A stretch of 64,000 bases of DNA, taken from NCBI GenBank assembly GCA_030834985.1, contig JAUQWV010000001.1:120979-184978 (forward strand). Direction: 5' to 3'. The position numbers and the translations under genes were made by a program. The stretch comes from Candidatus Dojkabacteria bacterium. Its GTDB lineage: Bacteria; Patescibacteriota; Dojkabacteria; J137. Below, one piece after another: positions 518 to 30,704 of this stretch. The stretch's first letter is position 1. The number at the start of each line of letters is the position of its first letter. The notes under the pieces were generated by a model. The model saw only the letters and a list, made by a program, of their open reading frames with translations. It was not told where the DNA came from and did no database searches.

Positions 518-883
518 TTAGTTCAGGTAGGCGTTTTCTGGCGGGATACCGTACTTATAGTACATACTTTCTTCAAGCTCGCGTAGAAACGCGATTCGGT
601 CTTCCGCGTGTTTAATTCCTACACACAGCGCCATGAAGAATTTTTCGTACATAAACGGTCTGGTATCCATGCCTTGCGCCCACAAGTGGAATTCCCCGGC
701 AAGGAACACGCCTTCCTGCCACACCTGAAGGTGTAGTCCTACTTTCTCAGGATTAGGGCAGTCCTTGACGACGAAAACGGCGTTGATACCGTTATCCGCC
801 AGTCGGTTCTGCGCTTCTAAGCTGAGTCGTTCAAGAAGGTCTTTGGCTTCGCTGTAATCCGTGGACATTTCTACTCTCCTCAT
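518..883 (-). CDS. hypothetical 121 aa protein; visibly GC-rich relative to flanks; paralog of 1624..1974
   Basis: Intact ORF. Shares a conserved core with the 1624..1974 product (AVFVVKDCPNPEKVGLHLQV vs AIVHIDDCDENPEGEVCLQLII, plus N-terminal Y.EA.DLL.R). G+C by eye ~45-50% versus ~30% around it. Confidence 0.6.
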   Translation of the reverse strand: MRRVEMSTDYSEAKDLLERLSLEAQNRLADNGINAVFVVKDCPNPEKVGLHLQVWQEGVFLAGEFHLWAQGMDTRPFMYEKFFMALCVGIKHAEDRIAFLRELEESMYYKYGIPPENAYLN

Positions 884-4298: not shown

Positions 4299-4389
4299 GG
4301 AGAGGTCGCATAGTTGGTCTAGTGCGCAGTCCTGGAAAGACTGTTTCCTCGCAAGGGGAACGCAGGTTCGAATCCTGTCCTCTCCGCCA
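4299..4389 (+). tRNA. tRNA-Ser (GGA), class II with long variable arm, CCA encoded
   Basis: Acceptor ggagagg/cctctcc, anticodon stem cagtc/gactg with loop ctGGAaa, 18 nt variable arm, T-loop ttcgaat, discriminator g plus cca. Confidence 0.8.
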
Positions 4390-4624
4390 TTTTTAAATGG
4401 TTCCACAAGACCTGCCTACCTCCTTCTGGTATCTTGAACGGTATTGTACATTGGCTTTCAGTAATTGCCAAATTCACAAAAAGTGCCTATTTTGCTCAAA
4501 AATAGCCATTATCGACTTTTAAACTTACCTCTCTGGTTCTAAGCTTTTTTGTTGCGGGTGTTGTGTATTCTTGATCGATGATTCTCGTTCTAATTTCGTT
4601 CCTCCCTTTTGATATAATTACTTT

Positions 4625-4858
4625 ATGAATAAAGAAAAGGATGTAAAAAAACAACATTACGTTCCACAAGTGTATTTGAGGAGATTTTCAATAAAAAATC
4701 AAATTAATGTATTGGATAAATTTAATGATAAATCTTACCCATCTAATATTAAAGATGTAGCTGAGGAAAATAGATTTTATGATATTCCTATCCCATCAGA
4801 AATAATTGAATTGGCTAAGAAGTCCGGAATAGAAATTGATCATCAATTTGTATTTTGA
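4625..4858 (+). pseudogene. truncated DUF4238-family gene (77 aa N-terminal fragment)
   Basis: N-terminus carries the HYVPQVYLRRF signature typical of DUF4238 proteins, which are normally ~300 aa. The ORF stops after 77 codons, directly downstream of the tRNA pair. Confidence 0.45.
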
Positions 4859-4928
4859 TGCAAGGCCATTGAATATCTATAGGTGATATAATCTTAAACA
4901 TCTATTTCGGATCTAGCTAATTTCTAAT

Positions 4929-5978
4929 ATGGCGAATATAAATTTTGATAGGGAGTACTATAAAAATTTAATAGCGAAGCACGGGTATCAAGAGCTGAAT
5001 ATTTCTGCAATAGATTTCAATCTTGGCGATATTAACAAAGATATATTACAGAGAAAATGGTTGTGTCACAGTAAAGGCTATATATTTGCAAAAGAACTTC
5101 TAGATAAAAAATCAATTGTAACAACTGGTATAGGAATAAGTGGTGCTCCACATATGGGCACTTTAGGACAAATTTTTAATTCTATATTCCTTCAGAACCA
5201 TGGTATTAATACGCAATTTGTATTAGGAGATTTAGATGCTTACAACGGTAAAAAACTTTCATTATCTTACGTAAAAGAACTTTCAGAACAGTATAAATCA
5301 TTTATTACTAAGTTAGGCTATTCTACAACGGATGGAAATATACTAAGGAATCAATTTGATGCAAGTGAAGTAACTAGGACAATGTATCTAATTGCAAAAT
5401 TTATAGAAGATAAAGATTTTGATAATGTGGAAGAAGATCTTCACAATTTTTATTCTGATAAAGGAAAAGTAGATAAGGATATGTCATTTAGACGTAAGAC
5501 TTCTCTTACTCTTATGACTGCAGATTTTATAGATCTTGTTATCAATCACAGTTTTACTAACGTGTTAGTTACATTAGGAGTAGATGAACATAAGTATGTT
5601 TTGTTTTCAGAAAAGATTCTAGAAAGAGTTATAGAGTCCGGTGAAATACTACCAAGCGACAGTATTATAAATTTTGGAGCAATGTACACTCACATAATTA
5701 GAGGCTTTAATAACTACCCTAAAATGTCGAAATCATTCCCTGATTCTTCGATAAATATTGAAATGAAATCAGATGAAATAAGAAATAGAATTTTGAATGA
5801 AAGAACAAACAAAATTCCAGAAGAAGACACTGTATATCAAATGATGTGTCTAGTAAGTAAATTTAATAGTGAGGAACTGTCAAAAAGATATATTGCATGC
5901 AAAGAAGATAAAGCATTATGGATGAAATATAAAAACGACTATATAGAATACTTGATAGATATTTTTAAACTGTGGTGA
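4929..5978 (+). CDS. class I aminoacyl-tRNA synthetase paralog, TrpRS/TyrRS family, divergent (349 aa)
   Basis: HIGH-region-like GIGISGAPHMGTLGQ, FVLGDLDA, and an intact KMSKS (YPKMSKSFPDSSINI...IRNRI). It has an extra ~65 aa N-terminal extension. First gene of a tightly packed operon. Confidence 0.6.
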   Translation: MANINFDREYYKNLIAKHGYQELNISAIDFNLGDINKDILQRKWLCHSKGYIFAKELLDKKSIVTTGIGISGAPHMGTLGQIFNSIFLQNHGINTQFVLGDLDAYNGKKLSLSYVKELSEQYKSFITKLGYSTTDGNILRNQFDASEVTRTMYLIAKFIEDKDFDNVEEDLHNFYSDKGKVDKDMSFRRKTSLTLMTADFIDLVINHSFTNVLVTLGVDEHKYVLFSEKILERVIESGEILPSDSIINFGAMYTHIIRGFNNYPKMSKSFPDSSINIEMKSDEIRNRILNERTNKIPEEDTVYQMMCLVSKFNSEELSKRYIACKEDKALWMKYKNDYIEYLIDIFKLW

Positions 5979-5979
5979 A

Positions 5980-7107
5980 ATGAAAAAATTTGCAAATGGC
6001 ATACAATTTAATAACCCTTTACACGAAGCGATATATCGGATAAACGTTGGACAAGATATAACTGAAGAGATGGCATACAATGCTTTTAGCTATACACTTA
6101 ACATTGAGGATGAAATTAATCGTGGAGTCTGCTTAGGAGTACTACTAAATGGTATAGTTTCCAAAAGACCCCAAATACATGAAATTCTCGGGATATTAAA
6201 AGCAACTCTTGACTATGATGGGATAGATATTACAAATCAAAAAAGATTGGAGATGCCTAACAATGCCCGAGTTATAGGCTATGCAGGGAGCGGTAAGAAA
6301 GGTATAAAAACTATTAATGTGTCTTCTTGCGCAGCCATCGTTGCTGCCACAGCGGGTACTTATGTGGCAAAATCATGTTCTGGTTCTACATCGTCTGTAT
6401 CAGGTTCTGCAGATTTCATTGAAATTTTAGGTGCCAATATTAGCCAAACTAATGAAGAGATGATAGATATAATGAAAAAGACTGGCTTAGGTTTCTTTAA
6501 AATTGAAAAAATGATCCCTAAGTTTGATAAGGTATATGGAGGTCATTTCTATGCACCTAATGCTCTAAGCTTTGGATTAGCAGGTATTTTATTGCCTTTT
6601 AGACCTGACAATTTATTTTACGGTTTAGCCCATCCTAATATTCACTTACTTATAAATGTACTAAAAGAATTAAATTATCGTTATGCATTCGTTGCATCAA
6701 CAACTGATGATGGAGTGCACTTTCTTGATGAGATTGGAATATTTGGTATGACTTCGGTTATTGGTATTCAGGAACATAAAATTGGTCATACTCTTACTTT
6801 CTCCCCAGCAGAAGATTTAAAATTACAAGGATACAATAGAAGTTCAATTGAACCAGGTAAGACTAGATTGGAGAATGTGAAAATGGGTGTCGATGTTTTA
6901 AGAGGGAAAGGCCAAATAGCTCATGAAGATTTGATTTGTGTAAATGCAGGAACCTTACTATGTTTAGACAAAAAAGCTAAAGACTTAACGGAAGGTTACA
7001 CTATATCAAAAGAGACTATCAAATCAGGGAAAGCAATAGAAAAATTAACTGAATTTATTACTGCAACTGGTGGTGATCTCAATACTTTAAATCAGTTTTT
7101 AGACTAA
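5980..7107 (+). CDS. glycosyltransferase family 3 fold protein (TrpD / nucleoside phosphorylase-like), divergent
   Basis: INVSSCAAIVAATAGTYVAKSCSGSTSSVSGSADFIEILGANI aligns by eye with the TrpD core [38 protein letters not shown]. The phosphate-loop GTGGD is replaced by GSGKKG and KHGNR by KSCSG. Confidence 0.55.
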   Translation: MKKFANGIQFNNPLHEAIYRINVGQDITEEMAYNAFSYTLNIEDEINRGVCLGVLLNGIVSKRPQIHEILGILKATLDYDGIDITNQKRLEMPNNARVIGYAGSGKKGIKTINVSSCAAIVAATAGTYVAKSCSGSTSSVSGSADFIEILGANISQTNEEMIDIMKKTGLGFFKIEKMIPKFDKVYGGHFYAPNALSFGLAGILLPFRPDNLFYGLAHPNIHLLINVLKELNYRYAFVASTTDDGVHFLDEIGIFGMTSVIGIQEHKIGHTLTFSPAEDLKLQGYNRSSIEPGKTRLENVKMGVDVLRGKGQIAHEDLICVNAGTLLCLDKKAKDLTEGYTISKETIKSGKAIEKLTEFITATGGDLNTLNQFLD

Positions 7108-8127
7108 TTGAAGGCAATAAAAATTTATAAAAATAAAATAGAATATACAGATATACATGAACCAAAAGTTGATGAAAAGTTTAATGTATTAGTAAGAGTA
7201 ATGTCAGTTGGTTTATGTGGAAGCGATGTACAAAGAATAGATTTTATTAATTCAAATAATCAAGAAATAAACCATCCAGTTTTAGGTCATGAAATTTCTG
7301 GAATTATCGAAGAAATAAAAGGAGAACAAGCTACTTTTAAAGTAGGAGATAGGGTGGCAATCGAACCTATTATCTACTGTAACAGTTGTAAATATTGCAC
7401 CGAAGGGAATTTCCAGTTTTGCGAAAATATCATTGCTTTAGGTAAAACTATTAATGGGGGATTTGCACAAAAAGTAGTTGTGCCAATAGAAAATATACAT
7501 AAACTACAAGATGATATAGACTTTGACACAGGAACTTTACTTGACCTATGCTCTGTCTGTGTACATATTCATAATTTAGCAGGTGATTTTTCAGGAAAAA
7601 ATATTGCAATAATTGGTGATGGTGCAGTAGGACTAATGACCGCAACATTTGTTGAAATATATGGTGGTAAAGCAATTATTATAGGAAAAAGGAAGAATGG
7701 TGGTTATAACTTTGTAAATTTTGAAGATGTTAGGAAACTAAAAGAAATCGAATCTACTTTTGACATAGTTATAGAAACAGTCGGTAGAAAAAATCTCACT
7801 TCCCTTAATCAAGCAATATCATTGAGCAAAATAAAGGGAAAGATTGTTGTCGCAGGTGTATTCGCACCAGAGTTTATGTTGCCAATAACTGCACGAACAC
7901 TTTTTTATAAAGAAATTACTCTTGTTGGAGCTAACTCATATAGTTATGATCATAATAAATCAAGAAGTGAAACTTTGTATGCAATTGAAATATTAAACAA
8001 ACATTATAAGAAGCTGAGTAATCTTATAACTCACAAGTACCCTCTTCAGAAATTTGAGGATGGACTTAATGCATTTAGAAATAAGGACACAAGTCATGCA
8101 ATAAAAATAGTATTTAACCCAAGCTAA
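7108..8127 (+). CDS. zinc-dependent alcohol dehydrogenase (MDR superfamily; sorbitol/threonine dehydrogenase-like); TTG start
   Basis: GLCGSDVQ, GHEISGII...GDRVAIEP, the structural-zinc Cys cluster CNSCKYCTEGNFQFC, and the Rossmann motif IAIIGDGAVG. Confidence 0.75.
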   Translation: MKAIKIYKNKIEYTDIHEPKVDEKFNVLVRVMSVGLCGSDVQRIDFINSNNQEINHPVLGHEISGIIEEIKGEQATFKVGDRVAIEPIIYCNSCKYCTEGNFQFCENIIALGKTINGGFAQKVVVPIENIHKLQDDIDFDTGTLLDLCSVCVHIHNLAGDFSGKNIAIIGDGAVGLMTATFVEIYGGKAIIIGKRKNGGYNFVNFEDVRKLKEIESTFDIVIETVGRKNLTSLNQAISLSKIKGKIVVAGVFAPEFMLPITARTLFYKEITLVGANSYSYDHNKSRSETLYAIEILNKHYKKLSNLITHKYPLQKFEDGLNAFRNKDTSHAIKIVFNPS

Positions 8128-8148
8128 TTTAACTTTTATTAAAATTTT

Positions 8149-9045
8149 ATGAGTACAAAAGAAGAGTTATATAAAAAATATCCTTGGTTAGAAGTAACAA
8201 CTACAATGGTTGATTATGTAAAGCCTAGTTACTACGATAAGATTATTAAGGAATACGAATATAAAGGAAAGAGTGATTTAGACTATACAATTGATTTTCT
8301 AAAAGATCAGACAAGAAAGGATTTGAGTGTTGTTGAGTTTGGAGCAGGTACAGGTAGAGGAACAAAACTTATAATGGAAAATATCGATTTTGATAAGCTA
8401 ACTCTTGTGGATCTAAGTCCTCAAATGATGGAGACTCTAAAAGAATTATTCAGCAAAGATTCTCGGGTACAGTTTGCACAAAGTGATCACCTAAACTTTA
8501 TGGAATCTACTGAGGATGTGTTCGATTTAATGGTGACACTATGGAGTTTATCTCACTCTATCCATCAACATTTTGGAAGAAATAAGGGAGATGATACTAA
8601 GATAGTTCAAATATTAAAAAAGTTCTTCACTAATAATATATCTAAGGAAGGAAAAGCATTCATTATCCACTTCGATACACTATCGGATGAGCAAAGAATT
8701 TTAACTAAACAATGGGCCAAAGTTTATCCTACCTTTGCTGATTATTACCACAATAAAATTCAATCTCCTTCTAAACAAATTGTTGATAAAGTATTAAATC
8801 AACTAAATGAGAGCAATACTATTTCATACAATTGTGAACATATAATAGGAGATGAAATTATATATAAAGATATGAATGAAGCTTTAGAGGTCTTCATGAA
8901 TTTTCATTTAGAATCACATTTCAATCAATTGGATATTGTCGAAGAAGTTGTAGAAGATTTAACAAATGAACTAAATAAATATAAAGACGAAGATGGAACA
9001 ATCAGAGTTAAGCCAGGCTTTTTCCTATACACTATAACAAGATAA
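8149..9045 (+). CDS. class I SAM-dependent methyltransferase
   Basis: Motif I VVEFGAGTGRGT followed by an acidic loop (LVDLSPQM). Confidence 0.6.
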   Translation: MSTKEELYKKYPWLEVTTTMVDYVKPSYYDKIIKEYEYKGKSDLDYTIDFLKDQTRKDLSVVEFGAGTGRGTKLIMENIDFDKLTLVDLSPQMMETLKELFSKDSRVQFAQSDHLNFMESTEDVFDLMVTLWSLSHSIHQHFGRNKGDDTKIVQILKKFFTNNISKEGKAFIIHFDTLSDEQRILTKQWAKVYPTFADYYHNKIQSPSKQIVDKVLNQLNESNTISYNCEHIIGDEIIYKDMNEALEVFMNFHLESHFNQLDIVEEVVEDLTNELNKYKDEDGTIRVKPGFFLYTITR

Positions 9046-9050
9046 TTGAA

Positions 9051-9905
9051 ATGACTAAACCTGAGAATTCTAAATTAATCGTATTAGATATTGATAACAC
9101 TATAAATACTAAAAATCTAAATGGAGAGATTCAATTAGTTAAAGAATTTATAGACTTACATACTAAGATCGATTTAAAGAAGAATATTAAAATTGCTTAT
9201 AATACAACTAGGGGAATCTCTCGGGTTTTGGAAATGCTAAAAGGTGAACAGGAATATTTCGGTAATGGAGTAATATCAGCATTAAATGGTTCTTTGATCT
9301 ACGATCTTAAAGGTATGCAACAACTTGAAGGTTATACTATCTCAAATGATATTAGAAAAATGTTGTCGGAATGGTTTATAAAAAACACAGATATAACATT
9401 TATGGCATTTTATACTAATAACGATATATATGGTCATGTATATTTGAAAGATGCTAATAATGTTGATGAGTTCTATAAATTGCATGAATCTTCTTTTAAT
9501 CATGAGAAATATAGATGTATATCTGATCCTAAAATCTTTGCTTCATGGATTGAACAAAAAGATATCAATATGATTGAATTCAAAACGGCTGATGAAAATA
9601 AAACAAATGAATTTTTGATTAATAATCCCAACATAAACTTCTCCTTTGATGGACATTTTTATATTAATCCTAAAGGTATAAATAAAGGATCAGGGTTAAG
9701 AGATTTAATAAGATTTATTTATAGAGATGAAACTAATTTGGATATTATAGTTGCTGGTGATTCTAAAACAGATTTAGCAATGTTTCTGGATTCAAACTAT
9801 ATGAATATTATTGTCGGAGAAAGACTACCAGAAATTAGAAATGAGAATTATACAAAAGTAAAAGATCCAAAAGAACTTTGCAGTATTTTAAGTAGCTTAT
9901 TATGA
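9051..9905 (+). CDS. HAD-superfamily hydrolase, Cof/IIB-type phosphatase
   Basis: Motif I LIVLDIDNTI (DxDxT), C-terminal IVAGDSKTDLAMF (GDxxxD), and a cap-domain-sized insert. Confidence 0.65.
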   Translation: MTKPENSKLIVLDIDNTINTKNLNGEIQLVKEFIDLHTKIDLKKNIKIAYNTTRGISRVLEMLKGEQEYFGNGVISALNGSLIYDLKGMQQLEGYTISNDIRKMLSEWFIKNTDITFMAFYTNNDIYGHVYLKDANNVDEFYKLHESSFNHEKYRCISDPKIFASWIEQKDINMIEFKTADENKTNEFLINNPNINFSFDGHFYINPKGINKGSGLRDLIRFIYRDETNLDIIVAGDSKTDLAMFLDSNYMNIIVGERLPEIRNENYTKVKDPKELCSILSSLL

Positions 9906-10813
9906 ACATATCCAGCAAAACAAAAGTTAACAGTGTATATCAATTGCCTGCTAATAAAAATGAATTATCAAAATTATCTGATATTACTACACTTGGGAAA
10001 ACATATAGCCTAATGAAATATGGCTCTCGGTTAGCAATCAGAGATTTCGCAGAACTAATATATAGCCAATACGAGAAGGACTTTGATTACAAAGATGGTG
10101 ATTTGTATATAACATCTACTCTAACCTCAGATATTGATTCCAGCTCACACTTTATTGCAAGGGAACTTCAAGAGATTATCAATAGAAAAAGATTAAAACT
10201 TAACCTCAAATCTTGTAAATATATTGAACTACTTGCACGAAAAAAAATACTTATTAGTAGCGATTACGGAAAAGTACAGAATAAAAAAGATAGAATTCAA
10301 TCACAAGGTAATATGGAACTTATAACATATCCAAATCTTAAGTCTGATGATTTACTACTTGTTATTAATGATTGTTTCGTGACCGGTGCTCAATGGGAAC
10401 TACAAGAAGAATTATTGAGAAGTAATAGGTTAACCTCTCTTATTAATTATTACTATATTATTAAATTTACTGAATCAAAAGGTAGCTTTGATATTAGTGT
10501 AGAAGACTTATTGAACAACTATGAAGTTAATAATGATTTAGATTTCTTAAATTTAATTATTAAGCTTTCGAAAGACAAACAGTTAACTTGGAATAAAAGA
10601 ACATTATTAAGGTCACTAAACCTTAATCAAAAACATTTTGAACTATTTATAGATGGGTTGAGAGTCGAAGATTTAGAAACTCTTTGTAATAATTCAGTAT
10701 TATCAGATACTCATCTTGTAAATAACGGAGAGTTTTTAGGCAAAATTGATTATATGTTCAATGTGTTGAAGAATAAAATCCAGAGAGAAGGATTCGAACC
10801 TCCGAAGCCCTAA
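9902..10813 (+). CDS. hypothetical protein with type I phosphoribosyltransferase-like PRPP motif
   Basis: SDDLLLVINDCFVTGAQ resembles the PRTase PRPP-binding loop. The last ~35 nt overlap tRNA-Tyr on the opposite strand, and the C-terminal ...REGFEPPKP is the antisense translation of the tRNA T-arm. Confidence 0.4.
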   Translation: MNISSKTKVNSVYQLPANKNELSKLSDITTLGKTYSLMKYGSRLAIRDFAELIYSQYEKDFDYKDGDLYITSTLTSDIDSSSHFIARELQEIINRKRLKLNLKSCKYIELLARKKILISSDYGKVQNKKDRIQSQGNMELITYPNLKSDDLLLVINDCFVTGAQWELQEELLRSNRLTSLINYYYIIKFTESKGSFDISVEDLLNNYEVNNDLDFLNLIIKLSKDKQLTWNKRTLLRSLNLNQKHFELFIDGLRVEDLETLCNNSVLSDTHLVNNGEFLGKIDYMFNVLKNKIQREGFEPPKP

Positions 10814-10862
10814 GGACGCCTGATTTACAGTCAGGTGCGATTGACCGCTCCGCCATCTCTGG
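10779..10862 (-). tRNA. tRNA-Tyr (GTA), long variable arm, no encoded CCA
   Basis: Minus strand reads CCAGAGA-TG-GCGG-AGCGGTCAA-TCGC-A-CCTGA-CTGTAAA-TCAGG-(15 nt variable arm)-GGAGG-TTCGAAT-CCTTC-TCTCTGG-A. Confidence 0.8.
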
Positions 10863-10991
10863 ATATGAGAAAGTATAACAAAAAGTGGGCTATTTTAGTA
10901 TGTGATGTTACGATAATACAAGACTTTTTGATGAAAAAAGTTTAAAATTAGCCAAATAAAATTAAGAATACTATTTATTCATAAAGAACGT

Positions 10992-12116
10992 ATGTTAGAC
11001 AATCTAAAAAATATAACAGAAGAAATTCTAGGAGAAGAAAGACTCGTAGAGCTATTAAATTCTAATATACAACCAGTACACTATATTGGATTTGAAATAT
11101 CAGGAAAACCTCATATCGGTTCAGGTATTGTTACCATGATGGTTATAAAGGAGCTATTGAAGCTAAATGTTAAATGTAAGATATTTTTAGCTGATTGGCA
11201 TTCATGGATTAATAACAAACTAGGAGGAGACATCGATTTTATAAGAGAGGTGGGCATCCCTTATTTTAAAGAAAACATTTTAGCTGCAGCAAAATGCGTA
11301 GGCGTTGATCCATCTAATATCGAATTTGTAATTGGTTCCGACCTTGCAAAAGATATGCAATATTGGGCTACTGTAGTAGATGTTGGTAGAAATACCAGTC
11401 TATCTAGAATTCAAAGAAGTATTACCATTATGGGTAGAAAGGAAGGAGATAGTGTGGATTTTGCGAAATTAATGTACCCAGCCATGCAAGCAGCAGATAT
11501 TTTCTACATGGGTATACATATCGCTCACGCTGGTATGGATCAACGTAAGGCACATGTTATTGCTATTGATGATGCAAATCATATGGACATAAATCCAATA
11601 ATAGTAAATGAGAAAAAATTTAAACCAGTAGCAGTTCATCAGCATTTACTGATGGGCCTTACTCCTCCATCAAAAGAGATATTAGAACGTATTGAAAAAG
11701 GAGAAATTTCTCCAAAAGATGTTTTAGGGGAATTAAAGATGAGTAAAAGTAAGCCAGACAGTGCTATTTTTATGAATGACTCAGAAGAAGAAGTTATTAG
11801 AAAGATTAACAAAGCTTATTGCCCTGAGGGAATTACTGTTTTAAATCCCGTTTTAGATTGGGTAGAAAACTTGTGTTTTAAATTCTCCAATTCAGAGATC
11901 AATATTCTAAGAGATGAGAAATGGGGAGGAAATATTACCTACAAAACATATGAAGAGCTAAAGAATGATTTTGAACAAAAGAAATTACACCCAAGTGATT
12001 TAAAGAAGGCAGTAGCACTATTTATAAATGATTTCCTTAGACCTGCCAGAGAGCATTTGTCCAAGCAAGAGATTGTTGAAATGGCAAAGAAAATAGAAGA
12101 AAAGGTAACTAGGTAA
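10992..12116 (+). CDS. tyrS: tyrosyl-tRNA synthetase, archaeal/eukaryal type
   Basis: HYIGFEISGKPHIGSG (HIGH region), ELKMSKSKPDSAIFMNDSEEEVIRKINKAYCPEG (KMSKS plus the archaeal-type TyrRS tail). ~374 aa with no bacterial-type C-terminal S4 domain. Confidence 0.8.
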   Translation: MLDNLKNITEEILGEERLVELLNSNIQPVHYIGFEISGKPHIGSGIVTMMVIKELLKLNVKCKIFLADWHSWINNKLGGDIDFIREVGIPYFKENILAAAKCVGVDPSNIEFVIGSDLAKDMQYWATVVDVGRNTSLSRIQRSITIMGRKEGDSVDFAKLMYPAMQAADIFYMGIHIAHAGMDQRKAHVIAIDDANHMDINPIIVNEKKFKPVAVHQHLLMGLTPPSKEILERIEKGEISPKDVLGELKMSKSKPDSAIFMNDSEEEVIRKINKAYCPEGITVLNPVLDWVENLCFKFSNSEINILRDEKWGGNITYKTYEELKNDFEQKKLHPSDLKKAVALFINDFLRPAREHLSKQEIVEMAKKIEEKVTR

Positions 12117-12749
12117 ATGAATAACTTTGAAATAGATAAAAAACAATTTACTTTTAAATATAATGATAAGAATTCAAAAATTCTTATCATTACAGGACCA
12201 AGGTCAGTTGGAAAAACTACACTTGCAAAACAATTTTATGAATCTATAGGTATAGATTTTCTGGATCTCGATGATTTAGTTAATGAGAAGCTGAGTGAAT
12301 TCTTTAAGTCTGGTTCCAAAACACCTTTAGAACAAGCTATGGAGGCAAAAAACTATGACTTAATAGAAAGTATAGTTAGAGATATTGTTCAGAGTTTTGA
12401 TAATATAAACCAAGCTACTGCCATTGCTTTTGCAGGAGGAGCGTATACAGGATACCAAGGGTTATCAGGAGATTTAAAATCGAAATTTATTACAATAGGA
12501 TTAATTCCATACGAGAATGACGATGAACTATCAGTAAAATTGCTAATTGAAAGAGAATCTAATCGGGAGCATTTCAAAAAACTTATTGATGAAGGGAAGT
12601 TAGATATGGAAACTTTATCTAATCGAGTACGAAATGATTATATTAAAGTAAATACTTATCTAAGAGCAAATACAATAGATGAATTAATTTTTATCCAACA
12701 AAAGACACCTATCGAAATAATGAACCAGGTGTTGGATTTATTAAAGTAG
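12117..12749 (+). CDS. P-loop kinase (shikimate/adenylate-kinase-like fold)
   Basis: Walker A ILIITGPRSVGKTTLAKQF followed by LDLDD. Its start overlaps the tyrS stop codon. Confidence 0.45.
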   Translation: MNNFEIDKKQFTFKYNDKNSKILIITGPRSVGKTTLAKQFYESIGIDFLDLDDLVNEKLSEFFKSGSKTPLEQAMEAKNYDLIESIVRDIVQSFDNINQATAIAFAGGAYTGYQGLSGDLKSKFITIGLIPYENDDELSVKLLIERESNREHFKKLIDEGKLDMETLSNRVRNDYIKVNTYLRANTIDELIFIQQKTPIEIMNQVLDLLK

Positions 12750-12752
12750 AAT

Positions 12753-13310
12753 ATGAAATATTTAGAGTATAAATTCGATAACTATAATATATTAGTTAGA
12801 AATATTGAAGAAGCTCAACGAATTGTAAACGAAAAGTTTGAAAAAGAGGAAGAGTTCTTTACAGATCCAGCTGACCCACGATTATTAACCTTACCTACTA
12901 TTAATACTGACGCATACATTCAAAAGGTGGGTGTAGATCAAAATAATCAAATAGCAGTCCCTGATAATATTCATTTAGCTGGCTGGTATATAAATAGTGT
13001 TAAACCAGGTGAAAAAGGCTTGAGTATAATAGATGGACACGTAGACGGCTTATTCAATCCTGGGGTTTTCCGTAACTTAAAAGAGCTTAAACAGGAAGAT
13101 ATTTTTACTATTGAATATGGTAATGGTAGTATCTATACATTTAAAGTTGTAGATAAAAAAGAAATTTCTACTGAAGATGCTGCAAAAGTTTTATTTTCAA
13201 AAAATCCTGGTATAGTAAGCCAGTTGAATTTAATTACCTGTGTTGGAGTATTCGATCCGTCAGTCCAAAGTTACGACAAAAGATTAATTGTAATTGCCGA
13301 AAAAATATAG
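12753..13310 (+). CDS. sortase-family transpeptidase-like protein with no N-terminal membrane anchor
   Basis: The catalytic triad is present in order: His (IIDGHVDG), Cys in LNLITCVG (TLxTC-like), and Arg 14 residues later (YDKRLIV). No hydrophobic N-terminus. Confidence 0.5.
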   Translation: MKYLEYKFDNYNILVRNIEEAQRIVNEKFEKEEEFFTDPADPRLLTLPTINTDAYIQKVGVDQNNQIAVPDNIHLAGWYINSVKPGEKGLSIIDGHVDGLFNPGVFRNLKELKQEDIFTIEYGNGSIYTFKVVDKKEISTEDAAKVLFSKNPGIVSQLNLITCVGVFDPSVQSYDKRLIVIAEKI

Positions 13311-13312
13311 AT

Positions 13313-13708
13313 ATGGATACTAAAGTTGTAACTAGAGTATTTATAGAAAATGAGGAAGGAGCTGTAATGTTGGGTAAGAGAACTAAAGGTGCAGGCGCTA
13401 AACAATGGGCTCTTATTGGTGGTAAACCTAATGAAGGAGAAGAGTTATCTGAAACTGTTGTCAGAGAAGTGAAAGAAGAAACGGGTCTGGATTTTGAACC
13501 TCTATATATTGGAAAAATAATAGATGCAAGTTTTGATGCAGATAGCCCTTGGCATGTATACTTGTTTAAAGGAAAAGCTACCGGAGAACTTAACCTTGAT
13601 TTAGATGAGATTTTAGAAATCATCTATGTTACTAAGGCGGACATAGATGGCCTAGATATCGCTTTTAATCACAAAGATTTGCTATTGGAATTCTTTGGCG
13701 AATCATAA
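13313..13708 (+). CDS. NUDIX hydrolase
   Basis: Nudix box GGKPNEGEELSETVVREVKEETGL (Gx5Ex7REUxEExGU). Confidence 0.8.
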   Translation: MDTKVVTRVFIENEEGAVMLGKRTKGAGAKQWALIGGKPNEGEELSETVVREVKEETGLDFEPLYIGKIIDASFDADSPWHVYLFKGKATGELNLDLDEILEIIYVTKADIDGLDIAFNHKDLLLEFFGES

Positions 13709-14750
13709 TTATTATATGGAACAACTAAATACAATACTTTCTTCAGCTAAAAAAGTATTTATAACGTCGCACCTTAAGCCAGATACAGATGCAGTCTCTT
13801 GTTTATTAGCTATGCATTATTATGTATCTCAAGTTTATCCTAATGTGCAGGCAGCTGCTTATCTTAGTGGTGAAATGACAGATTCTTTAAATGAACTTTA
13901 TGGATTTAGTCAAATTAAATGGGTAGCTGATATTTCAGGTTATGTTAATGAATACGATACATTAATATTTGTAGATGCTTCTCAATTACATCGATTCACT
14001 ATAAATCCAGATAAAATAGACCTAACTAAATTTAAGTCTATATGTTTTGACCATCATAATAACGAACCTTCTAAATTTACTTATATTGTTAATGAGTTTA
14101 ATGAACCTTCATGTTCTCAGGTATTATATAAACATCTATTTAAAGAACGCAGTGACCTACTGAATCCGGCAATTGGAGAGGTTTTGCTGACAGGGATAAT
14201 GGGAGATACAGGATCTTTAAGATACATTGGCAGCAAAACCTCAAATACTCTACTTTTAGTTAAGGAATTACTTGATGCTACTGGTTTGCAGATTAAAACT
14301 ATTCAGGAAAAGTATTTTGGATATCCAGTATCAGATTGGGAGATTATCACGGCGTTAATAACCAATACAAGGCTTGTATCTGACTATCAACACCCATTTT
14401 TATACTCTTATTTACCACTTGAATTTCTAGATAAGTATTCAACTAATACAATTAAACAAGCAAAAAATAAATTTTTGTTTTTAGTTAGCGGCACGATTAA
14501 AGGATATAAATGGGGATTTGTAGCTACTCCAGACACTTTAAAGAATGTAAATCTTTCATTTAGATCAGGTCCAGATTCTGTTAATGTAAGGCTTTTAGCA
14601 GAACAGTACTTTAATGGCGGTGGCCATGATCAAACTAGTGGTGGCGAGGTAGTATTATCTGATAATCAGACAGTCGAAGATCTTGTTTATAAGATGGAAA
14701 GTCAAATCAAATCGCTCTCTGATTTACCATTAATCGTGAAAACTCCATAG
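13695..14750 (+). CDS. DHH-DHHA1 phosphoesterase (NrnA-like oligoribonuclease / pAp phosphatase)
   Basis: DHH motif CFDHHNNEP, the Asp-rich FVDASQ motif, and the DHHA1 GGGH motif (NGGGHDQTSGG). Confidence 0.75.
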   Translation: MANHNYYMEQLNTILSSAKKVFITSHLKPDTDAVSCLLAMHYYVSQVYPNVQAAAYLSGEMTDSLNELYGFSQIKWVADISGYVNEYDTLIFVDASQLHRFTINPDKIDLTKFKSICFDHHNNEPSKFTYIVNEFNEPSCSQVLYKHLFKERSDLLNPAIGEVLLTGIMGDTGSLRYIGSKTSNTLLLVKELLDATGLQIKTIQEKYFGYPVSDWEIITALITNTRLVSDYQHPFLYSYLPLEFLDKYSTNTIKQAKNKFLFLVSGTIKGYKWGFVATPDTLKNVNLSFRSGPDSVNVRLLAEQYFNGGGHDQTSGGEVVLSDNQTVEDLVYKMESQIKSLSDLPLIVKTP

Positions 14751-25831: not shown

Positions 25832-25859
25832 TTGTTTGCTCAGGTTTCTCTGCTATAAT
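25832..25859 (+). promoter_or_regulatory. putative promoter TTGTTT-16-TATAAT upstream of the surface-protein gene
   Basis: Hexamers read from the sequence. The ORF-track TTG start at 25836 lies inside this element, which argues for a downstream start. Confidence 0.3.
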
Positions 25860-25898
25860 GAACAAAAATATAGTACTTTAGTTGTTATTTATACTATA

Positions 25899-28800
25899 GT
25901 GAAACGACTAACACACCAACTGCGCATTGGTTTGTATTTATCAATGCTAGCAATGTATTTTATTTCTCCCTTGGCTCCATTAGTAGCCGCAGATAATCCC
26001 CCAAGCTCATACCCTAGCGTTTTAGAGCAAGACCTAACGGATGGAACTGTTGAAACACCAGTGGAAGAGGAAGTTCCTGAACAAGAAACTCCTGTAACCG
26101 AGGAAGAACTACCGCTTACTTATCCTACTTCAAGCCCTTTACTTGAAGTTCCAAGTAAGGTTGTAGAAGGTAAAAAGGTTACTTACAATAACATTACTAC
26201 AGGTACAACATATATTTATGATTTCAATAGCGCTGTAACAATTAACTTTGCTGCTTTACCAGAAGGTGAATGGCATTTAAATATTGAGGAAGTTCAAGTT
26301 ACAGTAGATGGTCAAACTACAACAGGTTATGAATTCACTTCGAATTTAGTAGATGGAACTTTTGAATATGCAATGACCTTACCAAATCCTTACGGAACTT
26401 CTGCAGTTGTCAAATATTCTGAAGATGGCACTACTTATCAAGAATTAACTAACGAAGAAGTAGTTAGCAATGTACTAAGGTTCACTGCTGATCACTTTAC
26501 TGTGTTTGTAGTTGTACCTGATGACATTGTTCCAAGTAATATTGTCTCTTACTTTCATCAAGGCTGGAGATTAACTAGAGTTGGTAATGCTTCTATTGGA
26601 TTAACGGATATTACGACAGCAGGAGCTACCAACGCTTTTGGCCCTGACATTATTGGTATGAGTAGACCTGGAGGAGCTGGAACAAACAGGTCATTTCTTG
26701 GTTATTTTGATTATGGAAGAAGATTAAATGAAATAGAACAGATAAAATGGAATAGATTTAGTAATATTGGTAATGATACTTACCTAAACATATTTATTAC
26801 AAATTCCTTTGGAGGTTTTGGTGTTTTAGGTACAACAGCTACAGTTGTTGTTAAACCTAGCATTACACCTGGTGTTTGGCAAGAAGGAGTATTTGATAGT
26901 TCATCAACAGTAGATCTTAGAGTAGGAGGAACAACCTATACGCTTACATGGTCAGAATTAATGTCAACATACGGAAATTGGTTCATATACAATGATGCAA
27001 ATATATTGGCTAATAGGCAAGTAGGCGGAATTGTATTTGTGTCAGGCTCTTCAAGCCCTACCGCACAGCAAGAACATTATTACGATGGCGTTACTTTGGA
27101 TTTTGTAGGTGAAGATCCAATATTTTATGATTTTGTTCAAGAAGTTCCTGAGCAACCGGTGATAGAGATCTTAACTCCACTTTCTGGTTCATATGTAAAA
27201 GGAACAGTTAATGTAAGAGCTAGAATTACAGATTCAGGCTACGGTTTAAATCCTGACTATATTTGGGCAAAATTCTCAGATGGTATATCTCCTGCTGAGT
27301 TTGGCCCAACTTTGATGACATTAGTTCCTGGCGAAACTGATATTTATCAAGCAAATATCAACACAGTTCCTAATAATGGACTTTATAGTGTTGGCGTTGA
27401 TGTAATTGACAATATCGGTATGGGGAGGTCTGCTAAAAATATAAACGTCACGGTAGATAATACAAGACCAACCTTAGTATTTAATAATCCTTCTGTAGCT
27501 AATCAGCTTGTAGGAAGCGACTTTACTGTTAGTGTAACAGCTACTGATAATACTGTACTTAATTATATTGCTGTAAACTTATACAATGCTACTAACACAA
27601 CCTTACTTGGAACTTGTGGTGTATCACCAACTAATCTTGGAGTAAGTACATATACGTTTGAATGTAATATTGATGTAGATTCTTTATCTGAAGGAATCTA
27701 TACTTTGCGAGCAGGAACTTTTGATGCTGCAGGTAATAATCAAACAACAACTGCAACATTTAAGGTTGATAAAACCGCTCCTGTGTTGACAATTAAAGGT
27801 AGCGTATATGGTAATAGCTACACGCCTGAATCAATTGGAGTTGGTCCCTTAAGTAATGTATTTCAAAAAGTTAGCTTTAAGTTATTTGATAATAACTTAA
27901 TTGATAAAGTAACTGTAAACGGTGTTGTAAATGATATGTCAAATAATCAATGGAGTGATGCTAACAACATAATACCAAATAATTACTGGGGTGCTGTTGA
28001 GGGATTAAATACAATTGTACTATTTGACGCAGCTGGTAACAGCACATCATATGACTTTGTATTAGATACTACAGCGCCAGCTACTCCACTTGGCTTACAT
28101 TATTGGGATCCAAGTACTAGTTCTGAGCTAGCATGCGGATCTATTGTTCAACCAAAAAGTATATGGCCAAGATGGGATGCTAATACAGAAAGTGATTTCT
28201 CTCATTATGAATACACATCATTTGATGTAACTACTTCTGCTCCATTCTGGAGAGTTGGATTAGATGAACAGGTTCTAACCATAAACGAATTTCAACATAG
28301 CTGGGTCCCACCTATGGATGGAATTTACGGTTATGCAGTACGTTCGGTAGATGAAGTAGGTAATAAGTCAGACTGGGCTTTGGGTGGTACAGAAACTCTT
28401 GAAGATAGTTGTCAGTATACGGTTGATAGAGTAAGACCAGTTGCACCTGTAATTGTTTACCCTGATGAAAATGATGCCTTTAATGTAATGCCTATTCTTA
28501 ATGATTGGGAACATGAAGAGGAACTATTAGGAATAGACTTTTATAGAGTTGCCTATTTATATGATGATGGACACGTATTCGGCGGCAGTACATGTCCTGG
28601 CTTACAACTAGAAATAGATGGAGAGCTTAAAACTGTTAGCGGTTGTAGAGACGTAACAGCATCACAAAGATTCCATGTTCCAGATACTATAGAAGAAGGC
28701 GGTGTGAATTTTAAAGTTCAAGCATTTGACTTAGCTGGTAACGAAGGTGAATGGAGTGAATGGCGACATTATTATTACGATATTACTCAGCCATCCTCAT

Positions 28801-30704
28801 CCTTTATTTCACCTGCTGATGGAGCAGTATTCGGCGACAACGTAAATCTTGAAGGTGCTTCAGTGGATGTTATTACTTGGGTAGATGAAGTTTATTTAGA
28901 ATATAGCGAAGCTAATGCAGATAACTGGATTCTATTTGCTACATTGCCAAATACATTAGTTGCTAATCCATATGAATGGAGTTATTCTTGGTCACCTTTA
29001 ATAGAAGATGGTGTATACGATATTAGAGTAAGGGCAATGGATGCTGCAGGTAATGTTGAAAGCACAGATTATATTTATGATATTATATTTGATACTACTT
29101 CCCCATTAAATGTTCCTGTAATTACAGCGCCTACTGCTGAACAGTATTTCAACTCTATTCCAATACTAAATAAATGGACAGCAGTTGTTGATGAGCTAAG
29201 TGGTACAAACAGATATCAAGTAGCTTATTTATATGATGATGGACACGTGTTCGGCGGCAGTACATGTCCTGGCGTAGAGATTGAGATCAGTGGAGTACCG
29301 ACAGCAGTTAGCGGTTGTAGAGATACCTCAAATTTAGAAAGAAATCATACTCCAACACTTTCTGAACAAGGAGGTATAACAATCTGGGTAAGGGCAATTG
29401 ATAATGCTGAAAACGTAGGTGACTGGAGTGATCCTATCCATTACTATTACGATGCTACTGTGCCTGCTGTTCCAACAAATGGATTGCCACATAATCAGTA
29501 TAAAAATACAAATGATGGTTGGTACTTTACTTGGAGTGACGTTACTGACTCCGGTTCCCCAATTCATTATGAGTTTATAGCTTCTCAAAATAATTCAGTA
29601 GATGAGTATGGGGTTTTAAATTCTGGAGTTTGGTATAACACAAGTAGTAGCCATCCTGAACAGAATCCATTGAATTTACCACAGATACTAACTGTTGGTG
29701 CTGCTGAAGGTCAATGGTTCTGGCAAGTTCGCGCAATTGATGAAGCTGGTAATACCAGTAATTGGAGCGAAGTGTGGAATGTAACTATAGATATGACAGA
29801 TCCTGGTGTTGAAATCACATTACCAACTGATTCTTCACTACTTTCTGGCATTCAAGATATAAGAGGTACGGTACAAGACAGTAATCTTGCAGGTTACTTG
29901 ATTGCAATTCTTGATACTTCTCTTTCATTAATTGATGGCCCAATTATAGTTACTGACGGTATATCATTTATAGATGCACTATTACTTAACTGGGATACTG
30001 AACTGGAAGCTGATGGTGACTATGTGATTGTATTAGCAGCAGCTGACCTAGCATGGAATTGGTCAGTAGACTTTATTACTGTAACCATTGATAATACACC
30101 TCCGGTATTAGTATTAGAACCAACAGTAGTAATTAATGAAGGTCAAGTTCTTGGCGAAGGAGACATTTTGGAAGAAGGAGGGAATCCAGAAGATCTACAA
30201 ATAGTTTGCAATCCAGAGTTAGATTCACTACCTTTATCAGTGGATGAAGACGAGACAATTCCTGTTGAATGTACAATAACAGATGCTGCAGGCAATACTG
30301 CAACTCAAACAGTTATGGTAACAATTCTGGACGTTCCTGAAACACCAGAACAGCCTCAAGAAGAAACACCTAGTACTAACCCAGGAACTAATACTGGTAA
30401 CAACCCTGGAACACAGGCAACAGCTTTAGGAAACGCAGAAGTTTTAGGTGCTGATAACGAAGGTGATGTTGAAGGCAATAATCCCGCAAGCTTCCCTGTG
30501 GATGAAGATGACTTAACATCTGATGATTTAACAACAAGAAGCTCTGGTAATGTACAAGGTCTTGGTGACTCGCAAACTACTGAAGGTGAAGAAACAAATA
30601 CAACTTCACCATTATTGGTAATATGCTTAGTTGCTGGTGCTTTATTATTAATCTTATTATTCTTGTTCTTATTCTTAAGAAGAGATAACGAGGAAACGAA
30701 CTAA
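25899..30704 (+). CDS. giant secreted or cell-surface protein (~1600 aa) with multiple Ig-like/beta-sandwich repeats and a C-terminal hydrophobic anchor
   Basis: Probable GTG start at 25899 gives a signal peptide VKRLTHQLRIGLYLSMLAMYFISPLAPLVAA|DN (ATG at 25944 is an alternative). The body is Thr/Asn/Gly-rich with repeated ...YYYD.T.P... modules. C-terminus is ...TNTTSPLLVICLVAGALLLILLFLFLFLRRDNEETN. Confidence 0.7.
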   Translation: MKRLTHQLRIGLYLSMLAMYFISPLAPLVAADNPPSSYPSVLEQDLTDGTVETPVEEEVPEQETPVTEEELPLTYPTSSPLLEVPSKVVEGKKVTYNNITTGTTYIYDFNSAVTINFAALPEGEWHLNIEEVQVTVDGQTTTGYEFTSNLVDGTFEYAMTLPNPYGTSAVVKYSEDGTTYQELTNEEVVSNVLRFTADHFTVFVVVPDDIVPSNIVSYFHQGWRLTRVGNASIGLTDITTAGATNAFGPDIIGMSRPGGAGTNRSFLGYFDYGRRLNEIEQIKWNRFSNIGNDTYLNIFITNSFGGFGVLGTTATVVVKPSITPGVWQEGVFDSSSTVDLRVGGTTYTLTWSELMSTYGNWFIYNDANILANRQVGGIVFVSGSSSPTAQQEHYYDGVTLDFVGEDPIFYDFVQEVPEQPVIEILTPLSGSYVKGTVNVRARITDSGYGLNPDYIWAKFSDGISPAEFGPTLMTLVPGETDIYQANINTVPNNGLYSVGVDVIDNIGMGRSAKNINVTVDNTRPTLVFNNPSVANQLVGSDFTVSVTATDNTVLNYIAVNLYNATNTTLLGTCGVSPTNLGVSTYTFECNIDVDSLSEGIYTLRAGTFDAAGNNQTTTATFKVDKTAPVLTIKGSVYGNSYTPESIGVGPLSNVFQKVSFKLFDNNLIDKVTVNGVVNDMSNNQWSDANNIIPNNYWGAVEGLNTIVLFDAAGNSTSYDFVLDTTAPATPLGLHYWDPSTSSELACGSIVQPKSIWPRWDANTESDFSHYEYTSFDVTTSAPFWRVGLDEQVLTINEFQHSWVPPMDGIYGYAVRSVDEVGNKSDWALGGTETLEDSCQYTVDRVRPVAPVIVYPDENDAFNVMPILNDWEHEEELLGIDFYRVAYLYDDGHVFGGSTCPGLQLEIDGELKTVSGCRDVTASQRFHVPDTIEEGGVNFKVQAFDLAGNEGEWSEWRHYYYDITQPSSSFISPADGAVFGDNVNLEGASVDVITWVDEVYLEYSEANADNWILFATLPNTLVANPYEWSYSWSPLIEDGVYDIRVRAMDAAGNVESTDYIYDIIFDTTSPLNVPVITAPTAEQYFNSIPILNKWTAVVDELSGTNRYQVAYLYDDGHVFGGSTCPGVEIEISGVPTAVSGCRDTSNLERNHTPTLSEQGGITIWVRAIDNAENVGDWSDPIHYYYDATVPAVPTNGLPHNQYKNTNDGWYFTWSDVTDSGSPIHYEFIASQNNSVDEYGVLNSGVWYNTSSSHPEQNPLNLPQILTVGAAEGQWFWQVRAIDEAGNTSNWSEVWNVTIDMTDPGVEITLPTDSSLLSGIQDIRGTVQDSNLAGYLIAILDTSLSLIDGPIIVTDGISFIDALLLNWDTELEADGDYVIVLAAADLAWNWSVDFITVTIDNTPPVLVLEPTVVINEGQVLGEGDILEEGGNPEDLQIVCNPELDSLPLSVDEDETIPVECTITDAAGNTATQTVMVTILDVPETPEQPQEETPSTNPGTNTGNNPGTQATALGNAEVLGADNEGDVEGNNPASFPVDEDDLTSDDLTTRSSGNVQGLGDSQTTEGEETNTTSPLLVICLVAGALLLILLFLFLFLRRDNEETN
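28440..28798 (+). repeat. internal duplicated module, copy 1 (~120 aa domain)
   Basis: Copies share a 51 nt core with 2 mismatches (28571..28621 vs 29224..29274, gcctatttatatgatgatggacacgtattcggcggcagtacatgtcctggc) and the protein motif AYLYDDGHVFGGSTCPG...VSGCRD. Confidence 0.7.
29109..29475 (+). repeat. internal duplicated module, copy 2
   Basis: See copy 1; the two copies are separated by one unrelated Ig-like domain. Confidence 0.7.

Follow-up and report, generated by a model that had tools for sequence, protein, structure and literature searches.

Sortases work on the outer face of the membrane, where they cleave the sorting signals of exported precursors and transfer these proteins to lipid II or to wall acceptors (PMC8225981). 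A characterised example of class F is the housekeeping sortase of Cutibacterium (Propionibacterium) acnes (PMC8225981). The family considered here includes proteins of Patescibacteria and Saccharibacteria annotated by NCBI as class F sortases (e.g., P0045, P0064, and P0110), and its members share a common layout. An N-terminal transmembrane (TM) helix, defined by a Kyte-Doolittle mean of at least 1.6, is present in 105 of 119 homologues, and most of the others start within one. The helix is followed by a linker with S in 95%, P in 100% and E in 97% of the sequences and with the motif Y-x-W-x-G, as counted in the columns of the alignment (a regular expression for the linker also matches the catalytic-domain motif SVKPGE), and then by D-P-K at the start of the catalytic domain. 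The anchored relatives are typically ~213 aa long, and their genes adjoin giant surface-protein genes, without housekeeping neighbours. At one anchored locus (L008, 2455..6004), the two proteins encoded just upstream of the sortase end with (V/A)PNTGLGG(RQTR) and have no hydrophobic tail; the (V/A)PNTGLGG C-terminus is a candidate for an unconventional sorting motif of this Patescibacteria sortase subfamily.

Sortase domains without an anchor have been engineered as soluble enzymes, e.g., the N-terminally truncated S. aureus SrtA used for sortagging, and they are not known to have a natural cytoplasmic role. The open reading frame (ORF) at 12753..13310 (+) of the window, i.e., of the whole 64-kb stretch of DNA analysed here (GC 33%), had been singled out in an original prediction as a sortase-like enzyme lacking a membrane anchor and embedded in the tyrS operon. 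The reading frame was recovered as predicted and encodes 185 aa, and the gene proved to be a truncated chimeric member of a known family and no new kind of enzyme.

Sortase domain without anchor and linker

The ORF matches the Pfam Sortase profile PF04203 of the sortase superfamily (MEROPS C60) with 66.3 bits, against a gathering score of 26.6, and the match spans ORF residues 45-184 and model positions 1-124 of 125; the profile searches thus do not reject the sortase family. The top NCBIfam model, and the best-scoring class model, is class_F_sortase (NF033748) at 100.7 bits, which is under its 166-bit cutoff, while the remaining sortase class models give at most 34 bits each. The catalytic residues named in the original prediction, i.e., the His in IDGHVDG, the Cys of LITC and the Arg 14 residues downstream, are all in place: His96 lies in IIDGHVDG (codon 13038-13040), Cys163 is the last residue of LITC (codon 13239-13241), and Arg177 (codon 13281-13283) is located 14 residues C-terminal of Cys163. 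All three occupy invariant columns of a 95-sequence family alignment. The catalytic domain keeps 13 of the 13 invariant residues and matches 49 of the 51 family columns conserved at 80% or more, where the family mean is 47.8 with a standard deviation of 1.8 (alignment A3).

The structural evidence points in the same direction. An AlphaFold2 model of the ORF, with the family alignment as input, reaches a mean pLDDT of 87.8, with values above 84 from residue ~40 and of 46-59 in residues 1-30. A sortase beta-barrel is predicted, and each of the 50 matches listed by Foldseek against the PDB is a sortase, from class A, C, D, or E (best E = 2.8e-9, TM ~0.6). A PDB search with the single ORF sequence gave no match, and with the family profile sortases A, C, and D were found weakly. 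From residue ~39 onwards the ORF is ~60-63% identical to anchored class-F-like homologues, and it shares with P0045, P0064, and P0110 a catalytic domain of ~50-63% identity, the His-Cys-Arg triad and the predicted beta-barrel. Profile, triad and predicted fold together place the domain within the class-F-like Patescibacteria subfamily of sortases.

The part of the protein that precedes this domain is different. The highest 19-residue Kyte-Doolittle mean in ORF residues 1-70 is 0.38, and the absence of a signal peptide and TM segment claimed in the original prediction is borne out by this hydropathy. At the linker columns S, P, and E the ORF has N, A, and R, and at the columns Y, W, and G it has E, F, and T. 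Compared with class F sortases, the ORF has neither the TM anchor nor the S-T-D-x-P-x-E linker, its N-terminus comes from another gene, no surface-protein gene adjoins it, and its 100.7 bits stay below the curated class F cutoff of 166. The two missing parts, anchor and linker, are the ones that make a sortase work. The reading frame is open and the conserved residues are intact, so that the disruption or degradation of a pseudogene is not seen; at the same time the ORF is truncated with respect to all family members and carries foreign sequence at the break, which are the marks of a gene remnant.

A TAG at 12747-12749 shuts the frame of the ORF 3 nt 5' of its ATG. A hidden upstream anchor was considered and ruled out by this stop codon, by the P-loop gene that fills the upstream space and by the absence of any other ORF on the + strand; no upstream in-frame start could supply a TM helix, as the TAG is preceded by the 3' end of the P-loop gene. 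Read-through of the TAG, which would join the P-loop protein to the sortase, was also considered and has no support, because the same in-frame spacing also precedes an intact methyltransferase gene in sister species. All three stop codons serve normally in the window, with TAA used 42 times, TAG 9 times and TGA 8 times, which likewise speaks against read-through.

Chimeric origin at a methyltransferase breakpoint

The ORF is located in a packed gene run on the + strand that starts with an archaeal-type tyrosyl-tRNA synthetase gene (tyrS, 10992..12116, NCBIfam NF006330, 386 bits). It is followed by a P-loop NTPase gene (12117..12749, 210 aa, AAA_14 at 33.5 bits), which is in the same frame as the ORF with TAG-AAT between them, by the ORF itself, by a NUDIX hydrolase gene directly 3' of it (13313..13708) and by a gene for a DHH-family phosphoesterase (13695..14750), which overlaps the NUDIX gene. 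The tyrS gene abuts the P-loop gene, and the gaps before and after the ORF are 3 nt and 2 nt. No convincing terminator was found between the tyrS, P-loop, ORF, NUDIX, and DHH genes, and the tight spacing supports a putative co-transcription of the ORF with the tyrS run. The operon of the original prediction thus stands as far as packing and the lack of a convincing terminator are concerned, while two of its gene names do not: the P-loop kinase is a weak AAA_14 match, and the supposed NrnA is a DHH protein that scores 61 bits against a 350-bit cutoff. The TyrRS has matches in Patescibacteria at 97% and 66%, followed by Woesearchaeota and other DPANN archaea at ~50%, a pattern of sequence matches that suggests an old inter-domain transfer of the archaeal-type enzyme.

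Searching GTDB species genomes with the TyrRS retrieved two sister species (L011 and L012) whose TyrRS is 97% identical, and a Logan contig (L100) represents a third sister lineage beside them. All three are collinear with window positions 4845..12851 at 92.1-93.4% nucleotide identity, and the similarity stops exactly at 12851, the last base of ORF codon 33. At this position the sisters have an intact FkbM methyltransferase gene for 248-250 aa, in which PF05050 (Methyltransf_21) is matched at residues 47-212 with 69 bits. The sister methyltransferase starts with M(R/K)YLEYKFDNFKILVRNIEEAQRIV.EKFEKEE and the ORF with MKYLEYKFDNYNILVRNIEEAQRIVNEKFEKEE; over the 26 residues aligned by tblastn, ORF residues 1-33 are 88% identical to the FkbM N-terminus. 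The N-terminal pattern RN..E...RI..E.F..EEY.F recurs in FkbM homologues of 38-58% identity from unrelated assemblies, which means that the 33-residue head belongs to the methyltransferase family. The P-loop gene has the same spacing and phase ahead of the methyltransferase gene in the sister species, and the family HMM detected no sortase in the sister loci within 8 kb on either side of tyrS.

The breakpoint at codon 33, together with the sister FkbM genes that carry the same head, shows that the ORF is a chimera in which codons 1-33 of a methyltransferase gene are fused in frame to a sortase gene. The 5' segment (12753..12851, +, codons 1-33) provides the start codon and the translation-initiation context, and the sortase-derived segment (12852..13310, +, codons 34-185) consists of ~8 linker residues and the complete catalytic domain. 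The resemblance to FkbM methyltransferases is confined to residues 1-33, which fit the N-terminal pattern of that family; the methyltransferase domain, which occupies residues ~47-212 in the sisters, is lacking, and a Pfam search of the ORF did not detect PF05050. As only the head that precedes the domain is present, the ORF is not an FkbM methyltransferase. A reciprocal product, with a sortase anchor and a methyltransferase body, was not found in the window by tblastn or by the family HMM.

Originally, the sortase gene stood beside the NUDIX and DHH genes, and the methyltransferase gene beside tyrS and the P-loop gene. The operon membership of the ORF is a by-product of the rearrangement. Neither an LPXTG-like C-terminal sorting signal among the ORFs nor a second, canonical sortase was found in the 64-kb window. 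A 1622-aa protein with bacterial Ig-like repeats (25836..30704) has a C-terminal hydrophobic helix followed by RRDNEETN, which resembles the end of a sorting signal, although the LPXTG-like motif is absent.

Presence/absence polymorphism and the tRNA-Ser-linked block

A second allele came to light through a variant of the downstream NUDIX protein from its 90% cluster. Five loci of this B-type (L101-L105) match the window at 98.6-99.6% identity from 13193 onwards, i.e., through the NUDIX, DHH, and ABC transporter genes and beyond, which indicates that they belong to the same species. They have the same NUDIX-DHH-ABC block, and in front of it only the last 38 codons of the sortase gene remain (13193..13310, +, 118 nt), with Cys163 and Arg177 and without His96. 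Upstream of this relic are a ~100-nt element, a degenerate tRNA-like stretch, a 155-aa NUDIX gene and a TehB-like methyltransferase gene, and the latter two are absent from the window. With only 118 nt left in B-type strains and no sortase near tyrS in the sister species, the gene is evidently dispensable. In more distantly related genomes, whose DHH proteins are 46-49% identical, the DHH-ABC-TPR-helicase order is maintained and no sortase is present at this place. Within the clade, every sampled state of the sortase is thus truncated, being either the 185-aa chimera or the 38-codon relic.

In a further relic-type locus (L111), the NUDIX gene is ~98% identical and the relic is ~14% diverged. 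Between the relics of L101 (1233..1350) and L111 (583..700) there are 13 synonymous and 2 non-synonymous differences (pS 0.54, pN 0.022), and the divergence is limited to ~200 nt comprising the element and the relic, with near-identical flanks. Both relics have an identical junction with the ~100-nt element, which falls within a microhomology of ~10 nt between the end of the element, AAATTYTCAAAAA, and sortase codons 146-150, TTATTTTCAAAAA. No ATG, GTG or TTG start codon occurs in the open frame of the L111 relic. The divergence could stem from recent deletions that happened in parallel between the same short repeats, from site-specific recombination or from a mosaic produced by recombination; whichever applies, the pattern implies that the sortase was functional until recently in more than one lineage and was lost more than once. 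A 4-nt insertion near the start of the downstream NUDIX gene (around window 13370; L110 ~790..830, L111 ~750..765) is common to one A-type locus, with the allele of the window, and one B-type locus (L110 and L111, respectively), and only a 113-aa product is called there.

The sequence up to 12851 that is common to the sister species starts on the left with a tRNA-Ser(gga) gene and a conserved ~100-nt element (4299..4482, +), and a diverged copy of this element abuts the sortase relic in the B-type strains. The resulting block of ~8.5 kb (window 4299..12851; L011 875..10505; L100 1722..10753) is bordered on either side by sequence that differs between the window, L011, and L012. It carries, in this order, tRNA-Ser, the ~100-nt element, a very divergent TrpRS/TyrRS-like paralogue, a TrpD-like protein, ADH, a methyltransferase, HAD, a ComF-like PRTase, tRNA-Tyr (-), the archaeal-type TyrRS, the P-loop NTPase and the FkbM methyltransferase. 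The block is found 3' of three different tRNA-Ser isoacceptor genes, with the anticodon gga in the window, gct in L011 and cga in L100, and it looks like a translocating or integrative cassette. The ORF junction is best read as a rearrangement hot spot. Rfam models detected only four tRNAs in the window, and no convincing covariation was seen for an RNA structure of the ~100-nt element. Many independent Logan contigs of this organism begin at window position 10813 or 10830, within the tRNA-Tyr gene (10778..10863, -) upstream of tyrS, which suggests a branching point due to strain variation or to a repeat.

Another contig, L097, was considered as a continuation of a sister genome and rejected: its ABC-helicase block is just 69% identical to the window, and its 96% match to L012 is local, covering 494 nt. 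This stretch (L097 1..494, L012 10682..11175) adjoins a PycTM-domain gene and overlaps a 160-aa NUDIX gene (-), the genomes are otherwise ~69% identical, and it is probably a recently exchanged mobile piece. The taxon labels of the related records are at odds (L011-L013, P0255): the sister MAGs are named Candidatus Saccharibacteria and a 99% identical copy of the ORF protein is assigned to the Patescibacteria group, while a member of the DHH cluster and the 66% TyrRS match are labelled Candidatus Dojkabacteria.

Recent remnant or retained enzyme

The ORF is a chimera that arose by a lineage-specific rearrangement, and in our judgement it is most probably a recent gene remnant that has not yet degraded. 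We hypothesize that one parent was a class-F-like sortase gene upstream of the NUDIX and DHH genes, with its N-terminal TM anchor and linker, and that the other was the FkbM methyltransferase gene that closed a tyrS/P-loop/methyltransferase block. Both genes were broken by the rearrangement, and codons 1-33 of the methyltransferase gene were attached in frame to the sortase gene ~8 residues ahead of the catalytic domain. The product, if made, would be translated from the start site of the methyltransferase inside the tyrS operon; it would be soluble and cytoplasmic, with ~35 disordered residues as a tail ahead of a complete sortase barrel. Since sortases work on the outer face of the membrane and the ORF protein has no anchor, it cannot do the job of its family. 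The gene is judged a recent, undegraded remnant because it is almost wholly deleted in sibling strains, and the chimera may be young and on the way to the loss that these strains have already undergone. The order of events is a reconstruction, as the intact ancestor of the gene was never observed: neither a search of 5.8 billion proteins nor two JGI metagenome scans uncovered an intact orthologue, and the 90% identity cluster, which has two members only, contains none. We infer that the sorting function was lost and that the direction is decay.

The remnant reading has to account for a catalytic domain without decay (49 of 51 columns). Weaker points against it are the in-frame fusion, with a chance of 1/3, and the unchanged ORF of L110, a strain that differs from the window at 0.47% of sites over 11 kb and has 0 differences in the ORF where ~2.6 are expected. 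Among nine A-type assemblies and L110, the ORF shows 0-1 differences in 558 nt, a variation that carries little information on selection. The chimera could be a neofunctionalised cytoplasmic sortase-fold enzyme, i.e., a cysteine transpeptidase or protease kept by selection and co-expressed with tyrS and the P-loop NTPase, NUDIX, and DHH genes, which we regard as unlikely. The intact triad, the undegraded domain and the good fold model would suit such an enzyme, as would the in-frame fusion with an inherited start codon in a tightly packed operon and the dominance of the A-type allele in public assemblies (77 blocks of independent assemblies, compared with 7 B-type contigs). Like truncated S. 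aureus SrtA, the ORF protein is an anchorless catalytic domain that in principle may fold and act as a soluble transpeptidase, and SrtA deletion constructs are catalytically active in vitro, so that by analogy a cytoplasmic activity is chemically possible; the SrtA forms, however, are laboratory constructs.

Intactness, however, is expected of a recent event, and the ORF has its operon neighbours by accident. Its architecture occurs in a single near-clonal species: the search of 5.8 billion proteins returned one 99% identical copy, named sortase A [Patescibacteria group bacterium] by NCBI, the next-best protein is 63% identical, such matches cover only ~78% of the ORF, and there is no second lineage with this fusion. 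Moreover, no more than 38 codons are left in other strains of the species, and the 64-kb window offers no candidate sorting-signal substrate. A cytoplasmic sortase in its own right, towards which the original prediction leaned, is therefore not supported, given that its head consists of FkbM codons 1-33 and that B-type strains keep 38 codons only. Because the catalytic residues are intact, the join is in frame and this allele dominates in public data, a little room is left for a retained or new cytoplasmic activity. The more specific proposal, that the chimera is a newly born intracellular cysteine transpeptidase or protease which the tyrS operon expresses and selection maintains in a reduced-genome, Dojkabacteria-like member of the Patescibacteria, is decidedly doubtful.

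It is very improbable that the protein is a working surface sortase that reaches the outside by a non-classical route or with a membrane partner. Only the intact catalytic domain speaks for it, whereas the protein lacks a hydrophobic or signal-like stretch, its N-terminus is a methyltransferase fragment of high charge for which disorder is predicted, the juxtamembrane linker of the family is absent and no partner gene is evident. An artefact of assembly or gene calling, i.e., a chimeric contig or a wrong start that hides the anchor, can practically be dismissed. Some Logan contigs do end in the shared 5' segment, at window positions 12800 and 12818, but the exact ORF protein is listed in the 77 blocks of independent assemblies, with the same context in the contigs examined, on contigs of up to 282 kb, and two NCBI genome assemblies and Logan contigs of 57-145 kb are among the many assemblies that read through the junction in identical form. 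The identical protein and context in independent assemblies argue against an assembly artefact, the in-frame TAG 3 nt upstream and the P-loop gene leave no space for another start, and tblastn finds neither the anchor nor the methyltransferase body elsewhere in the window. The reverse polarity, with the window state ancestral and the sisters having gained a methyltransferase body behind the 33-codon head, has nothing but the formal symmetry of a two-state comparison in its favour and is scarcely credible, as the head is conserved on FkbM methyltransferases of unrelated organisms and the sortase family has its own N-terminus of TM helix and linker.

The reading of the ORF as a recent remnant has a parallel in another lineage. 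P0042 (L009 5779..6420; L010 1157..1798) is an orthologue of the sortase P0015 with an in-frame stop at codon 37, located between the TM anchor and the catalytic domain and present on several contigs of up to 209 kb; taken by itself, it is a natural knock-out or a candidate for read-through. As in the ORF, a single lesion parts the anchor from the catalytic domain, and the gene caller reports an anchorless sortase. The lesion of P0042, however, is a point mutation in situ beside the substrate genes, unlike the rearrangement in the ORF, by which two genes were newly fused in frame and the domain came to lie in a housekeeping operon. The knock-out of P0042 by an in-frame stop shows that sortase inactivation recurs in the family.

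These results are a caution for the annotation of single genomes, in which an anchorless sortase in a housekeeping operon mimics a new enzyme class; three sister genomes and a few sibling strains were sufficient to reveal an in-frame fusion at a rearrangement breakpoint. The ORF is a clean natural case of how truncation and fusion create a plausible-looking novel architecture in MAG-derived proteomes, and it points to a rearrangement-prone, tRNA-Ser-linked cassette that carries archaeal-type aminoacyl-tRNA synthetase genes. Should the ORF protein prove to be produced and active, it would be a rare case in nature of a sortase domain with an intracellular activity. For the Patescibacteria, the chimera and the 38-codon relics document the repeated loss of one sortase within a clade, with a nonsense allele in another lineage.
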